A stretch of 21,344 bases of DNA, from NCBI GenBank assembly GCA_014630515.1, contig GCA_014630515.1_4091.1; one strand, given 5' to 3'. The notes below the pieces were generated by a model. That model saw nothing but the letters and a program-made list of their open reading frames with translations. It ran no database searches and was not told the DNA's origin. Shown one piece after another: positions 2,877-21,344 of the stretch (position 1 is the stretch's first letter; the number at the start of each line of letters is the position of its first letter). This DNA comes from a phage. A program made the position numbers and the translations under genes.

Positions 2877-3101
2877 TTAGATTAGATTATTGATGCCGTT
2901 GATGGTAGACTCGCTTTCTTCTTTCTCCCATTGGCGGTAATACTTCCATGCTTCATGATAGGTGGCGATCAGTTCATCTTTTTGATCCTGAGTACATGCC
3001 AGTACTGAATCACTGTAAGCGGTGTTATAGATAGAATCAAATGATTTCTTCTCTTCTGCCAGGGTAGCTACTTCCCGCATCAGTTCATCAAAGTTAGCCA
3101 T
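2877..3101 (-). CDS. hypothetical protein (74 aa)
   Basis: ATG 3099-3101; AAGGAG SD 8 nt upstream. Confidence 0.7.
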   Translation of the reverse strand: MANFDELMREVATLAEEKKSFDSIYNTAYSDSVLACTQDQKDELIATYHEAWKYYRQWEKEESESTINGINNLI

Positions 3102-3149
3102 TTTAGTACTCCTTATTAGTGGGGGAGGATATCTCCCCCTATGTAAAAC

Positions 3150-3177
3150 ATTATACTTTGTTTTACTTACAATGCAA
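3150..3177 (-). promoter_or_regulatory. early sigma70-type promoter with 5' stem-loop
   Basis: minus strand TTGCAT, 16 bp, TATAAT; leader hairpin GGGGGAG-gatat-CTCCCCC. Confidence 0.6.
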
Positions 3178-3184
3178 GTACTTT

Positions 3185-3376
3185 TTAAATTTTATTTCCG
3201 ATATAGTCCGGCCTGTTCTTTTCGGTCATACGCTTAAGCATTTTTTGCATATGGCTTATTGCTTGTAGTGTATCCTCTTCCAGCGATGAATCAAGATAAT
3301 CAGGATCATTCTTCACCTTACAATGATTATGATAGCGTAGTACTGCCAGTACTTTTTTAACTTCTTCTACTGTCAT
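3185..3376 (-). CDS. hypothetical protein (63 aa)
   Basis: ATG 3374-3376 overlaps TGA of 3373..3645 (ATGA), consistent with translational coupling. Confidence 0.6.
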   Translation of the reverse strand: MTVEEVKKVLAVLRYHNHCKVKNDPDYLDSSLEEDTLQAISHMQKMLKRMTEKNRPDYIGNKI

Positions 3377-3645
3377 AATAAGTATTCCACTTCGTTTGCT
3401 TTCAGGTTAGTATCAATCATCAGTGGTTTTTTGTAGTCCACAAAACGATTAGTTTTCTCGATAGCGAAGCCCATATAATCCAGTTTGCTTACAGTACATT
3501 CATTCTTAAAAACTTCTTTCGCTGCATTGATGGCTGATTCAATTGATAACCGCCCATCTAAATTAATGTTACCAAATGATCCACCAGCAGAAGTAGGATT
3601 ACCGTTCATATCTTTAATAATCATAGTAGCGGAGTAGCTGGACAT
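3373..3645 (-). CDS. hypothetical protein (90 aa)
   Basis: ATG 3643-3645; AAGGA SD. Confidence 0.7.
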   Translation of the reverse strand: MSSYSATMIIKDMNGNPTSAGGSFGNINLDGRLSIESAINAAKEVFKNECTVSKLDYMGFAIEKTNRFVDYKKPLMIDTNLKANEVEYLL

Positions 3646-9464: not shown

Positions 9465-9493
9465 ATTATGCCAGTACTGGCATAATTTGTCAA
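9465..9493 (-). promoter_or_regulatory. sigma70-type promoter followed by conserved leader motif (element E)
   Basis: minus strand TTGACA, 17 bp, CATAAT; leader 9421-9460 carries the GCACCCTATGGGTTAGTGAC core; the nearest downstream gene is ~290 nt away. Confidence 0.5.
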
Positions 9494-9497
9494 TAGA

Positions 9498-9695
9498 TTA
9501 TTTTAACTTTTTTCTGTCATTGATTAATGCTTTCAGTACTATACTAATAACTTGCAATGATTCATCAATGACTATGAAATTATTCTCTTTCATTAGATGA
9601 TAGTTACCATTGATTGTATATTCTAATGAGTATTGTTTACGTTTAATTTTTGATAATGTATCAATTTGTTTTTGTACTGATTTCATGCTAATCAT
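9498..9695 (-). CDS. hypothetical protein (65 aa)
   Basis: ATG 9693-9695; AGGA SD 9 nt upstream; no clear own promoter. Confidence 0.55.
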   Translation of the reverse strand: MISMKSVQKQIDTLSKIKRKQYSLEYTINGNYHLMKENNFIVIDESLQVISIVLKALINDRKKLK

Positions 9696-9758
9696 TGTTA
9701 AACGTCCTGTAATGCATTCTAACGAGTTAAACGGTTTAGTACTGGCATTGTATAGGGT

Positions 9759-9794
9759 AAATGATTAAAGCCCACCAGCGTTAACCAGTGGGCT
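9759..9794 (-). terminator. rho-independent terminator (minus strand)
   Basis: minus strand AGCCCAC-loop-GTGGGCT (7-bp stem) followed by TTTAATCATTT; 3 nt after stop of 9801..9944. Confidence 0.55.
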
Positions 9795-9800
9795 ATATTC

Positions 9801-9944
9801 TTACATCTTGCGGATAATCTTAACAGTATCTTTCACCGATTTACCGTTTTGCTGGCATTGCTCGATCATCGCGTATTGTTCTGCGGTCAGATCCTCGCCA
9901 GTTTTTGCCAGTACTGCGTCGATGAATGAATCCAGTGCGATCAT
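9801..9944 (-). CDS. hypothetical small protein (47 aa), not in ORF track
   Basis: ATG 9942-9944; AAGAGAG SD; own promoter 9989-10016; stop TAA 9801-9803. Confidence 0.55.
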   Translation of the reverse strand: MIALDSFIDAVLAKTGEDLTAEQYAMIEQCQQNGKSVKDTVKIIRKM

Positions 9945-9988
9945 TTTGTTTCTCTCTTAGGTTAAGTTAACTACTGTTTATAAAACTT

Positions 9989-10016
9989 ATTATACAGTAC
10001 TATCAATCATTGTCAA
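9989..10016 (-). promoter_or_regulatory. early sigma70-type promoter
   Basis: minus strand TTGACA, 16 bp, TATAAT. Confidence 0.6.
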
Positions 10017-10043
10017 TAGATTTAATAGTACTGGTAATATATT

Positions 10044-10223
10044 TTAGCGGTAGTCGTCGTATGCTTTATTCACCTGGCGAATGTAACTTTCAAAGGCTTC
10101 GTCTACCGTTTCATACTCCCGAACATAATCACCATAGGAAACTACATACATCCCTTTTTGATCTTCAAACGTCATGATGATAGAATCCAGGCCGATGATT
10201 TCAGTTTTTGCGATAATAGCCAT
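10044..10223 (-). CDS. hypothetical protein (59 aa), paralog of 14113..14325
   Basis: ATG 10221-10223; AAGGA SD; track start 10295 lies in promoter; shares MAII start and Y.VS...Y....VD.A..Y block with 14113..14325. Confidence 0.6.
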   Translation of the reverse strand: MAIIAKTEIIGLDSIIMTFEDQKGMYVVSYGDYVREYETVDEAFESYIRQVNKAYDDYR

Positions 10224-10266
10224 TTTAGTATTCCTTAAATTAATATGCGTTGTCTTGATAAAAGTT

Positions 10267-10295
10267 ATTATGCCAGTACTATCAAACGTTGTCAA
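10267..10295 (-). promoter_or_regulatory. sigma70-type promoter (CATAAT subtype)
   Basis: minus strand TTGACA, 17 bp, CATAAT; same cassette as 14065-14093 and 14361-14389. Confidence 0.55.
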
Positions 10296-10314
10296 TAGTA
10301 CTGTGATAATATTT

Positions 10315-10527
10315 TTAGTTAATGATAGTCAGTGTAAAATTGTAATCCCCTGCCTGGTATAGTACTTTATCGCCGAACGTGCCAACACGTTTCATATTGC
10401 AATAGATACCCATAACACTTTTTACATCTTTGATATTCCGAACACCTGTGATATCCTTGTTGAAATTTTCATGATCAGAAAATAAAACTTGTTTTGCATT
10501 TTTCAGTACAGTGCGGATATTAGCCAT
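10315..10527 (-). CDS. hypothetical protein (70 aa)
   Basis: ATG 10525-10527; GAGGA SD; track start lies in leader. Confidence 0.65.
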   Translation of the reverse strand: MANIRTVLKNAKQVLFSDHENFNKDITGVRNIKDVKSVMGIYCNMKRVGTFGDKVLYQAGDYNFTLTIIN

Positions 10528-18884: not shown

Positions 18885-19124
18885 TTACATTCCAACCATC
18901 GCCGCACGGATCGCAGTAGTGCTATACTTAAAGCCGTCTGGAGTTTTATCTTGTCCAGTCTGTTCTAAAAATAGCATCATATGACGGGCCGCATCATTGC
19001 GATTAGTATTGGCGGCAATAAAGTCCTGGGCCAACCGGTACAATGACTCATCGTTATTAATCCAAAGGCTTACATTCCAATGAGTTTTGTTTTTGTGACC
19101 TAAGAACATTTTTGATTTAGCCAT
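18885..19124 (-). CDS. hypothetical protein (79 aa)
   Basis: ATG 19122-19124; GAGGA SD. Confidence 0.7.
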   Translation of the reverse strand: MAKSKMFLGHKNKTHWNVSLWINNDESLYRLAQDFIAANTNRNDAARHMMLFLEQTGQDKTPDGFKYSTTAIRAAMVGM

Positions 19125-19174
19125 TTTTTAATCCTCTTATATAGTGGGGAACTATTCCCCACCTGATGTAAAAC

Positions 19175-19202
19175 ATTATACGCTTTTAAACTTAGTTTGC
19201 AA
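19175..19202 (-). promoter_or_regulatory. early sigma70-type promoter with 5' stem-loop
   Basis: minus strand TTGCAA, 16 bp, TATAAT; leader hairpin GGGGAA-ctatt-CCCC. Confidence 0.6.
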
Positions 19203-19216
19203 GTACTTTATTAAAC

Positions 19217-19579
19217 TTATTCGTAAATTTTGCCACTGTCAGCCCATACCAGGAAACGAGGCATATTATCCCATGCATCTTGTTTTAAATTTAAACCGTG
19301 TAATACTTCTGTACTTTCCATTCCTGGTACTGGTTTACTATACACCGCGAAATTTTCGCCCATATACTGATAAACCATCGTTAAATCACTGGCGATCATC
19401 TTATGGATCATCGCATCAAGCATCACGGTAGCGGCGTATTGTTCACGCTTAAGCGGCAACATTGTAATAAGTTCCCGATAAGCTGAAATGTGAATTTTTA
19501 CCGTTTCAGCCGGAAGACCTTTCATCTCTTCACGGAAGTTGACCAGGTTAGCAATAATTTTATTGATTTGGGTCGCCAT
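19217..19579 (-). CDS. hypothetical protein (120 aa)
   Basis: ATG 19577-19579; track start 19636 lies in promoter and leader; first gene downstream of the ORF-poor region. Confidence 0.6.
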   Translation of the reverse strand: MATQINKIIANLVNFREEMKGLPAETVKIHISAYRELITMLPLKREQYAATVMLDAMIHKMIASDLTMVYQYMGENFAVYSKPVPGMESTEVLHGLNLKQDAWDNMPRFLVWADSGKIYE

Positions 19580-19635
19580 CGTATTAATCTCTTTTAAAGT
19601 GTAGCGGGAAGTGTTCCCGCTCTCGATGTAAAACA

Positions 19636-19663
19636 TTATACGCCTTTAAACATAGTTTGCAAG
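19636..19663 (-). promoter_or_regulatory. early sigma70-type promoter with 5' stem-loop
   Basis: minus strand TTGCAA, 16 bp, TATAAT. Confidence 0.6.
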
Positions 19664-19898
19664 TACTTTCTACATGTACTTTTAAAATAGTTTTCTTTCT
19701 ATATAGGGGAACTATTATTCAGTACTATCATTCAGTACTGAATCAACCAAATCACTACTACACCCCATAAAACGGCCTCAGACGCATTCTAACGCATTAA
19801 TACACCTAAGCTATACATTTGCACCATTCCAATCATTCCAGGGCTTTACGGGCCGTTTAAACGCGTTAAATTATTTTCAATTATTTTGTTTTTAGGTA

Positions 19899-19926
19899 TT
19901 GACTTGATCCTGAAAAAGCGTATAAT
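19899..19926 (+). promoter_or_regulatory. plus-strand sigma70-type promoter
   Basis: plus strand TTGACT, 16 bp, TATAAT; followed by conserved leader motif GACGCGAGAAAGCGGATACCCCAGGGGGTGGGAAG. Confidence 0.55.
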
Positions 19927-20113
19927 TACTACATAGACGCGAGAAAGCGGATACCCCAGGGGGTGGGAAGATCCGTCCAAAATTCAAGATATAAAAAAAG
20001 GATAGACTCCCGCACCCTAGCAGGTTAACGCACTTTCTCAGTACTGAATTATAGTACCATAGTCCGGCCCAGGATGGCAAGCAAATTAATTAAAACTTTT
20101 TTCATCCAGGGTA

Positions 20114-20141
20114 TTGCTTTATTTTTCCAGTACTGTATAAT
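20114..20141 (+). promoter_or_regulatory. plus-strand sigma70-type promoter
   Basis: plus strand TTGCTT, 16 bp, TATAAT; followed by leader motif GTCGAGAAAGACTCAAGCCCACCGGGTGCATAG. Confidence 0.5.
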
Positions 20142-20239
20142 AGTTCCATCAAGTCGAGAAAGACTCAAGCCCACCGGGTGCATAGTTACGCCCAAAATTC
20201 AGTACTGAAAAAAATTTTTAAAAATATCCGTCCAGGCCG

Positions 20240-20268
20240 TTGACATTGCCCCCAGTTTATAAGATAAT
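20240..20268 (+). promoter_or_regulatory. plus-strand sigma70-type promoter
   Basis: plus strand TTGACA, 17 bp, GATAAT; points into the iteron-like region. Confidence 0.5.
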
Positions 20269-20359
20269 GATTCCAGATTCAGAAAAATCTAACTCCAGAT
20301 ACTGCGGGGAAACTATCCCCACGCGGTAGGGGAACTATTGGAAAAAACAAAATAAAATT

Positions 20360-20480
20360 TTGATTTAGCCGTCTATACTTCCAGACGTGTAACCATCTAG
20401 CCGTTTAGCCGTCCAAACGTCTAGCCATCCAGCCATCCAGAAATCTAGACGTTTAGCCGTCTAGATGGATAGCCATCTTT
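20360..20480. repeat. iteron-like direct-repeat array
   Basis: 7 copies of YAGCCRTY within ~115 bp (TTTAGCCGTC at 20364, 20404, 20452); also CTAGACGT/CTAGATGG and ACTTCCAGAC repeats; preceded by A-rich tract 20341-20360. Confidence 0.5.
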
Positions 20481-20879
20481 ACTTCCAGACTTCTGGAGGG
20501 CTAGACATATCTACGTCCAAAATCCATCCAGGGTAACTACGCCCAAAATCCGTCAGTACTATACCATAGATCTATCTTTTGAAAGGGAGTATTCAGTACT
20601 GCCATCATAGCCCTCACTATGTTACCCTAGGAGGATGAAGACTATCATGTAGTACTGAATACTGTTAGAGGGAATCCACCAGCACAAGCTGGTGGCATAA
20701 TGCTTTAGATTAAAATCAGTACTGACACCATTCTGTTAATATCAGTACTGTTATTACGATTTTCATATGAGGTTCAAAAAGATGTACCACCACAGGAGGA
20801 ACTATCTTTTCTGTACTGTCTCACGACAGGAGGTAGAGTAAATGAATTGTTCGCAGCAACTCATCTCTCTATGTAGAAC

Positions 20880-20907
20880 ATTATACAGTACTGAATCATA
20901 ATGTCAA
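20880..20907 (-). promoter_or_regulatory. minus-strand sigma70-type promoter in ORF-poor region
   Basis: minus strand TTGACA, 16 bp, TATAAT; no ORF over 60 aa downstream. Confidence 0.5.
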
Positions 20908-21242
20908 TAACTTTCTTTCATTATTCAGTACTGATATTCTTGAGAACTACCCGTCTACAAACATCATTATATCCCACAAATCATAAACGTCCCAACGTAA
21001 ATTTCAACTTTCGAAGATCCAACTTTTATTTCATAGGTACTCCAAAATTTTTAGGATCGAGATTTAGGATGGAGTACTAACCAACTTTTTGCTGGAGCCT
21101 CAAGGGGTAATGGAATTTTACCCCGACGGGTAAAAGGGTAATTGTAATTAAGGTGAAAGTAATAATTCAGTACTAATCATTGCGTGATTACTTTTGATTA
21201 CATTTGATGTAATTTGAAAAATGGAAAAGGAGCTTGGAAACT

Positions 21243-21268
21243 AAAAAGTACGGCAGACTTCCTCTGCC
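21243..21268 (-). terminator. possible rho-independent terminator (minus strand)
   Basis: minus strand GGCAG-aggaagt-CTGCC followed by GTACTTTTTAG. Confidence 0.4.
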
Positions 21269-21271
21269 TAC

Positions 21272-21344
21272 TTAGTGACATATCAGTACTGCTACGTTCT
21301 TGATTAAACGTGAACATTCCTGTACTCTAGTACTCACTACTGAT
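21272..21344 (-). CDS. possible 3' end of a minus-strand gene entering from the right edge (partial)
   Basis: open frame from window edge to TAA 21272-21274, followed 4 nt later by the 21243-21268 hairpin; too short to assess. Confidence 0.3.
   Translation of the reverse strand, partial: SVVSTRVQECSRLIKNVAVLICH

Follow-up and report, generated by a model that had tools for sequence, protein, structure and literature searches.

Among described systems, the one closest in position to the element reported here is the DRD repeat of phage T5 (GTGCAAATCCGAC, nine copies), which lies in Repeat Region 3 of the left terminal repeat, a candidate injection-stop region, and to which no function has been assigned (AY587007; Davison, bioRxiv 10.1101/866236). 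Here, we analysed a stretch of phage DNA of 21,344 nucleotides (contig GCA_014630515.1_4091.1 of GenBank assembly GCA_014630515.1; called the window throughout), near the right end of which an earlier note, made from the letters alone, had pointed to a 13-mer, ACGYCCAAAATYC, repeated in a region poor in open reading frames (ORFs). Like DRD, this motif is a direct repeat of ~13–15 bp that is found on one strand of a large non-coding region at the inner (right) boundary of a direct terminal repeat (DTR). The resemblance in sequence is partial and was judged by eye (CAAA(A)TCCG(A/T)C, 11 of 15 positions after one gap relative to copy 4). The two are similar but not the same, and they belong to unrelated families (Demerecviridae for T5, RaK2-like jumbo myoviruses here). 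Whereas the nine copies of T5 straddle the boundary, the four or five copies here are all inside it, and two of them are tied in position to promoters and hairpins, an arrangement with no counterpart in descriptions of DRD.

The order of elements at the inner boundary of the repeat is also T5-like, with an array of regulator boxes (metboxes in phages PR1 and Pontus, Fur-like boxes in T5) followed by short same-strand repeats and then by the boundary. In T5, Fur-like boxes at 9470–9650 precede DRD at 9672–9895 and the repeat ends at 10139; in the window, an array at 20367–20510 precedes motif copies at 20513 and 20539 and the boundary at 21272. Same-strand GTGCAAATYC(GAC) repeats adjoin the box arrays in T5 (9672–10409), Pontus (400–455) and PR1 (595–640), and PR1 carries ATGCAAATTCCAAAATTC as well as TGCAAATTCCAAAATTC, the latter containing the exact core of the motif.

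Other described systems share single traits with the motif. Fur boxes and MetJ metboxes, the host repressor operators of this phage group considered as promoter-distal roadblocks, occupy the same slots and are likewise short conserved words in a regulatory region; unlike them, the motif is asymmetric, and it was rejected by the metbox matrix as well as by the Fur and DnaA consensuses. Iterons and the R sites of lambda cosB are, like the motif (four to five copies, all on the plus strand), same-orientation copies of one word in a repeat-rich non-coding region beside a DNA end, but phased iterons and cosB differ from the irregular spacing seen here, and no adjacent Rep-type gene was recognised; unlike terminase repeats, the copies are 0.7–1.3 kb away from the cut, with two of them coupled to promoters. 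The lambdoid nut site combines a boxB hairpin with a linear boxA. Nut boxA/boxB and the put sites of HK022 resemble the locus by analogy only, in joining a promoter, small hairpins with purine-rich loops and a conserved single-stranded word; unlike lambda nut, the locus shows no boxA consensus sequence and places hairpin and linear element in the opposite order.

Literature searches with the motif strings and the T5 DRD string returned only primer sequences from unrelated papers, and searches for MetJ or Fur boxes together with phage terminal repeats returned nothing relevant. The motif appears to be a conserved short cis-regulatory repeat, operator- or iteron-like and positionally analogous to T5 DRD, and no prior description of it or of the neighbouring arrays was found in these searches.

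Copies of the motif and their confinement to the terminal region

The 13-mer ACGYCCAAAATYC occurred three times without mismatch in the window (copies 2, 3 and 4; Table 1), cf. 0.00 expected, and always on the plus strand; the remaining strong copy (copy 1) reads CCGTCCAAAATTC and differs by a single mismatch, a C at position 1. Allowing up to one mismatch, there were four matches in the window against 0.05 expected, and none of 100 shuffles reached four; no match beyond these four appeared when up to two mismatches were allowed. The four copies, which confirm those listed in the earlier note, span 579 bp at spacings of 215, 325 and 26 bp. The 9-nt core YCCAAAATY gave five matches, all on the plus strand, cf. 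0.95 expected. Thus the earlier count of four holds for the strong copies but missed a divergent fifth, the core of which (TCCAAAATT) is at 21041–21049.

The positions of the copies relative to their surroundings were also as the note had described. Copies 1 and 2 lie at the 3' side of plus-strand leader units, U1 (19899–20026) and U2 (20114–20200), at an identical distance, the motif ending 59 nt after the −10 box of its own predicted promoter (P1 and P2, respectively). Copies 3 and 4 stand in tandem beside an array of 8-bp period, 26 bp apart and with copy 3 abutting the array.

The last 1.7 kb of the window matched 44 phage records at 80–98% identity, essentially all of them Asteriusvirus, the PBECO4/121Q/slurp01 group of ~350-kb Escherichia coli jumbo phages. 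In records with determined ends, this region is found at the very start of the record, within the annotated DTR. In vB_Ec-M-J, the DTR is annotated at 1–21525 and record position 1 aligns to window position 21272, so that window 1–21272 is essentially DTR (~21 kb) and the last 72 nt (21273–21344) are DNA of the unique region. For the relative fEgEco12, PhageTerm and restriction digests established a DTR of 20,993 bp (PMC13070987). With few exceptions, the ORFs of the window run on the minus strand and thus read away from the boundary at 21272, and the DNA from 19640 to the boundary is non-coding in every annotated relative. Copies 1–4 lie 721–1287 bp inside this boundary, and no copy lies beyond it.

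Confinement was checked across a whole genome using OR844650.1, a relative of 351,992 bp whose complete genome was assembled from eight pieces. With up to one mismatch, five matches were found, namely the four homologous sites and one stray on the opposite strand at 344244; the 10-nt core YCCAAAATYC occurred eight times, four of them in the terminal region. Together with the excess of copies in the window, these counts indicate that the motif is real, clustered and confined, and the restriction to the control region that had been proposed was borne out, as a similar density in coding regions was not found in the 352-kb relative. Exact 14-mer scans of IMG/VR with TACGCCCAAAATTC and TACGCCCAAAATCC each returned at least 120 single matches on unrelated contigs, a chance level that made these scans uninformative.

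Conservation of the core and comparison with known boxes

Conservation was examined in an alignment of 12 Asteriusvirus genomes (81–99% identity in the region). Copy 1 occurred as three alleles, TTACGCCC, ATCCGTCC and TTGTGCCC (ACG, CCG and GTG), each followed by an invariant CCAAAATTC, and its YCCAAAATTC was the same in all genomes. Copy 2 was near-invariant (an extra A in UB, and a C to T change of the last base in UE-S1), and copy 4 was almost invariant, with CCCAAAAT unchanged throughout. The paralogous units U1 and U2 were identical at 46 of 80 positions (57%) upstream of the motif and 7 of 14 downstream, cf. 16 of 16 in TTACGCCCAAAATTCA; the only 16/16 identical block shared by the two units is the motif block. 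Within the U1 loop, CCAAAATTC was the only invariant 9-nt block among eight sequences from at least three genera (Asteriusvirus, Kaldavass-like phages and GAP32), between which the remainder of the loop varied.

The core was also kept at corresponding stations in more distant phages: after U1 in Erwinia phage Kaldavass; after U1, after the array and near the terminus in Cronobacter phage GAP32; after the array in Serratia phage BF; and after its array and near the terminus in Salmonella phage Munch. The tail station of copy 4 reads GTACACCCAAAATTC in GAP32 and Serratia BF and GTACACCCAAAATCT in Munch, and the station of copy 5 is present in GAP32, Munch and one IMG/VR contig. A 371-kb IMG/VR contig has two U-type paralogues, both with the core, and TTGCGTCCAAAATTCAT is retained in a third paralogue, from an IMG/VR contig. 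These alignments support purifying selection on the motif. Since the 5' ACG varies among alleles and genera, the conserved functional unit would be YCCAAAATYC; the repeat itself stands, but not the length of 13 nt first given to it, and the 13-mer is best described as a longer local form of an oriented cis-element with the core YCCAAAATYC, often preceded by TAC-R.

An explanation that would deny the motif a function of its own treats the copies as leftovers of segmental duplication (of U1 into U2, of 26 bp in tandem where the array ends, and a decayed P2-like promoter near copy 4) or as metbox-array outliers that have degenerated. The paralogy of U1 and U2 is clear, CATCCAGGGTA (repeat family D18) occurs upstream of P2 and again between copies 3 and 4, and copy 3 sits in the register of the array, within which its unit CGTCCAAA is found again at 20410; copy 3 has moreover decayed in three genomes. 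However, the motif stayed at 16/16 while the duplicated units diverged to 57%, and the core is kept at homologous stations where the flanks can no longer be aligned across genera. As the MetJ matrix also rejects every copy (see below), we consider both forms of this explanation, taken together, very unlikely.

The array was scored with a symmetrised MetJ weight matrix (Augustus & Spicer 2011, PMC3228920, Table 3), requiring at least 3.145 bits per unit and at least two adjacent in-register boxes summing to at least 12.58 bits. No other MetJ site in the window qualified, and the 352-kb genome had a single long run; shuffles gave at most three boxes. E. coli MetJ operators are usually described with two to five boxes. 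Arrays of 8–21 metboxes were found in 12/12 Asteriusvirus genomes, Kaldavass, GAP32, Serratia BF and two IMG/VR contigs, and also in the T5-like phages PR1 (9 boxes) and Pontus (15) and in the Autographivirid PGT2 (9); where ends are known, the arrays are close to the terminal-repeat boundary or the record end.

The motif was rejected as a metbox, with core-bearing units scoring −0.49 (TTACGCCC), 1.0 (CTACGTCC) and −5.4 bits (AAAATCCA). Only incidental flanking 8-mers barely passed the unit threshold (ATCCGTCC, 4.63; ATCCATCC, 3.24; ATCCGTCA, 3.38), and the best adjacent pairs at the copies scored 3.98, −1.14, 9.57, −7.66 and −0.9 bits, all below 12.58; the 9.57-bit pair, at copy 3, borrows the last box of the array, and the best pair that does not borrow scores 3.98. 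The proposal that the site is separate from the array, then termed iterons, therefore held, since the array scores as metboxes and the 13-mer copies fail.

Other identities were tried and rejected. No Fur box (at least 14/19 to GATAATGATAATCATTATC) was found in 19640–21344, the only matches in the window being at 3289, 3295, 10318 and 17046, and no DnaA box (TTWTNCACA) was found on either strand of 19600–21344. A middle or late phage promoter element was rejected because the 352-kb relative has no further copies except one stray, presumably in coding DNA, and an extended −10 promoter on the minus strand over copy 4 (TGGTATAGT) was dropped because neither GAP32 nor Serratia BF conserves it. Compared by eye, the motif showed no convincing likeness to the consensus sites of many E. 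coli regulators, among them IHF, Fis, CRP, ArgR, PurR, Lrp, AllR, MlrA, SlmA and sigma54.

In Serratia BF, Munch and Klebsiella phage Muenster, the loop after the U hairpins holds a Fur-box-like sequence (14–16/19 to the consensus), and in Munch (3060–3430) and Muenster (3055–3600) the position of the array is filled with Fur-box-like repeats and not with metboxes. Thus, in sister genera, the slots taken here by the 13-mer hold true double-stranded-DNA sites, and the Fur boxes in the loop, together with the adjacent MetJ or Fur array, mark the region as one in which protein-binding sites are concentrated. The host regulator whose boxes are carried appears to be exchanged between related phages. 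Fur-box-like repeats of the form AAATGAGAATCATTATCATT (15–16/19) are found in Munch, Muenster and T5 (AY587007, 9470–9650), and those of T5 coincide with the annotated 'direct repeat C' and palindromes E–I of the injection-stop region.

Table 1. Motif copies and associated features in the window.
Feature	Position	Strand	Remarks
Copy 1, CCGTCCAAAATTC	19973-19985	+	Most relatives have TTACGCCCAAAATTC; ~+41 to +53 from predicted P1 start
Copy 1 surroundings	Loop between inverted-repeat arms 19953-19970 and 20008-20026	+	
Copy 2, ACGCCCAAAATTC	20188-20200	+	After U2 hairpin; ends 59 nt past P2 −10 box
Copy 3, ACGTCCAAAATCC	20513-20525	+	Directly continues the outer end of the 8-bp-period array, in register
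Copy 4, ACGCCCAAAATCC	20539-20551	+	'Tail' station, 26 bp after copy 3
Copy 5 (divergent), GTACTCCAAAATT	21037-21049	+	Core TCCAAAATT at 21041-21049; 223 bp from DTR boundary
8-bp-period array ('iterons')	20367-20510		14 contiguous metboxes at 20367-20478 (105.9 bits) and 2 passing units
P1, sigma70-like TTGACT-16-TATAAT	19899-19926	+	Predicted; 11/12 to consensus; points to DTR boundary
P1 −10 hexamer	19921-19926	+	Promoter scan
U1 hairpin CGC-GAGAAA-GCG	19938-19949	+	Follows P1; stem covariation
P2, weaker sigma70-like TTGCTT-16-TATAAT	20114-20141	+	Putative; P1 paralogue, conserved in 12 genomes; below promoter-scan threshold
P2 −10 hexamer	20136-20141	+	Read from the sequence
U2 hairpin AGTC-GAGAAA-GACT	20152-20165	+	Precedes copy 2
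P3, sigma70-like TTGACA-17-GATAAT	20240-20268	+	Predicted; 11/12 to consensus; layout conserved in other genera
DTR boundary	21272		Physical genome end in relatives; from alignment of vB_Ec-M-J position 1

A proposed DNA site or a possible RNA element in the predicted leaders

The reading that we favour, with a probability of roughly 0.45, is that the motif serves as an oriented site in DNA, at which a sequence-specific protein blocks or marks transcription running toward the genome end. The element would be recognised as double-stranded DNA by a protein other than MetJ, Fur and DnaA, encoded by the host or by the phage, and one site would stand behind each of three predicted promoters firing toward the genome end: copies 1 and 2 at ~+41 to +53 from P1 and P2, and, for P3, copies 3 and 4 as a pair spaced by 26 bp immediately beyond the MetJ-box array. 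A P3 transcript would cross the array and then both copies. Copy 5 would be one more site, 223 bp from the end. The bound protein would form a roadblock or boundary both for end-directed transcription and for transcription from an end-proximal promoter that points inward, and at P1 it would decide whether the downstream arm of a long hairpin is transcribed. The copies, their confinement, conservation and set positions, and their mismatch with known boxes are observed; promoter activity, protein binding and the block to transcription are what we infer. In favour of the reading are the clustering of the copies, the signs of selection on them, the equal spacing to P1 and P2, the Fur boxes and box arrays of the region and the T5-like order of elements. 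The core occurs in three contexts (a hairpin loop, the edge of an array and a near-terminus module), always on the same strand, and the common factor is the DNA sequence and not one RNA structure. Evidence for a DNA site is indirect and comes from the Fur boxes that sister genera have in the U1-type loop and from the two contexts of the core that lack a hairpin. The protein-binding site suggested in the earlier note is partly supported.

Several findings weigh against this reading. Copy 3 is the least constrained copy, being degenerate in 3 of the 12 genomes (121Q, UE-S1 and EJP2), and Kaldavass is without the tail copies, so not every copy is essential. The site is asymmetric and irregularly spaced, unlike dimeric operators or helically phased iterons, and fits none of the binding-site consensuses tested. 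The promoter calls P1–P3 are consensus matches, and all copies are on the strand that these promoters would transcribe. Pfam searches with the ten nearest early ORFs returned only domains of unknown function and no DNA-binding or initiator-like domain, a search of limited sensitivity for small phage proteins. Finally, G-U pairs in the U1 hairpin work only in RNA of the plus strand, which fits a role in RNA equally well.

A role at the RNA level, in which the motif would be a single-stranded loop or linker of the P1, P2 and P3 transcripts that releases or regulates small structured U1 and U2 RNAs, is accordingly a live alternative: the motif lies on the transcribed strand, copy 1 in a hairpin loop and copy 2 at the same distance from its promoter. 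Two small hairpins come after each of P1 and P2; the first has the purine loop GAGAAA, and its stem (stem 1) covaries over paralogues and genera (CGC/GCG, GTC/GAC, CGG/CCG, GGAG/CTCC and CGA/TCG). In U1, an inverted repeat of 8–18 bp encloses a loop of ~40 nt in which RNAalifold places copy 1, unpaired, and three pairs of this long hairpin show compensatory changes, with several of the G-U pairs just mentioned. U1 folded better than shuffled sequences (z = −2.9 and −3.5), but U2, which has no long stem, did not (z = −1.15), and copies 3, 4 and 5 have no comparable hairpins; in sister genera, moreover, the same loop holds a Fur box, i.e. a DNA site. An Rfam 15 covariance-model scan of 19500–21344 at a permissive E-value gave no family match, only chance hits to microRNA and small nucleolar RNA models (E ≥ 1, far below gathering).

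The element could act in such transcripts as a site for an RNA-binding protein, as an RNase E-type processing site or as a contact with an antisense transcript of the same locus. RNase E-type cleavage prefers RN↓WUU, which AA↓AUU of the motif fits. As regards the seed of a trans-acting small RNA, only copy 1 was unpaired in a conserved structure, and no complementary site was found elsewhere in the 352-kb relative even with G-U pairs allowed, a search that covered the phage genome. Overall, we regard these RNA-level options, taken jointly, as the main rival of the DNA-site reading and as less likely than it. For U1 and U2 themselves, small structured RNAs are one possibility and leader elements of the put/nut type another. 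Over its first 52 nt, U1 of Asteriusvirus is 92% identical to that of Munch, genomes that otherwise share ~29% average nucleotide identity.

The proximity of the copies to the genome end raises the further question of packaging or end processing, in which the motif would serve as a site for the terminase small subunit, or for an end-recognition protein, that defines the DTR cut, with lambda cosB R sites, SPP1 pacL/pacR boxes and possibly T5 DRD as comparators. All copies share one orientation and strand and lie no more than 1.3 kb from the DTR boundary. Copy 5, which is 223 bp from it and retained in GAP32, Munch and an IMG/VR contig, belongs to the near-terminus module that is conserved best, and T5 DRD straddles the corresponding boundary in T5, ordered and oriented alike. 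Against this, known terminase recognition sites lie much nearer to the cut than the 721–1287 bp of the four strong copies, no copy lies past the boundary, and the fixed promoter distance of two copies would be left unexplained; we hold a packaging signal to be very unlikely.

A more novel reading is that phages with long terminal repeats, from unrelated families, would keep beside a genome end a modular 'landing pad' where DNA-binding proteins of the cell dock. The motif would be the word read by a third factor of this pad, and T5 DRD would be the functional counterpart of the motif. The basis for this is the occurrence of MetJ arrays in Asteriusvirus, GAP32, Serratia BF, PR1, Pontus and PGT2, of Fur arrays in Munch, Muenster and T5, and of DnaA boxes in T5. 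We offer the landing pad as a speculative reading, unlikely as it stands.

Neighbouring elements and implications

Several other elements were noted in the terminal region. Downstream of P3 (20240–20345) is a hairpin, GGGGAAACTATCCCC, the sequence of which differs but the pairing of which is kept in Munch, EJP2, Kaldavass, Muenster, GAP32 and Serratia BF; past it, a conserved CGCGGTAGG(G/C)NAGCNAATGGAAAAA is followed by an A-rich tract that runs into the array. The near-terminus module GGTACTCCAAAATTTTTAGGATCGAGATTTAGGATGGAGTACT (21036–21078), comprising an inverted repeat and two copies of TTTAGGAT(C/G)GAG, is conserved in GAP32, Munch, Kaldavass and one IMG/VR contig. A GC-rich hairpin at 20679–20698 (CCACCAGC-ACAA-GCTGGTGG), which Munch has with a different loop (CCACCAGCTTAAGCTGGTGG), probably corresponds to the terminator annotated in G17. 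On the minus strand at 20880–20907, 365 bp inside the DTR boundary, there is a perfect consensus sigma70 promoter (TTGACA-16-TATAAT), predicted to point inward to the tail motifs, the array and the early genes; speculatively, should this be the end that enters first, such a promoter would suit a T7-style entry of DNA driven by transcription.

The palindrome CAGTACTG occurred 42 times in the window, most densely in 19640–21344, and 204 times in the 352-kb relative, where every top bin fell within the terminal repeat. Overlaps with promoter spacers were seen (CAGTACTGTATAAT), AGTACT lies just upstream of the −35 box of early promoters, and the palindrome may be an operator or a promoter-associated element. 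Small early ORFs on the minus strand are each preceded by a near-identical cassette (examples at 19124–19202 and 19600–19662) that consists of AAAGTACTTGCAA-N16-TATAAT, then a 5' hairpin (GGGGAAnnnTTCCCC or GCGGGAAnnnTTCCCGC) and then a ribosome-binding site.

In published genome descriptions of RaK2-like jumbo phages, the 1.7-kb non-coding region stands without annotation. A conserved oriented word has here been mapped at three fixed stations of this region and shown to be distinct from the neighbouring MetJ- and Fur-type boxes; it offers pull-down work a specific bait and mutagenesis a set of defined targets. Should a host protein turn out to bind it, the region would illustrate compactly how a phage can read or titrate several host regulators at its chromosome end, and the motif would give a testable handle on the long-unexplained injection-stop repeats of T5. 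If the landing pad proved true, its sites together would tie the entry of DNA, the protection of ends or early transcription to the metabolic state of the host.

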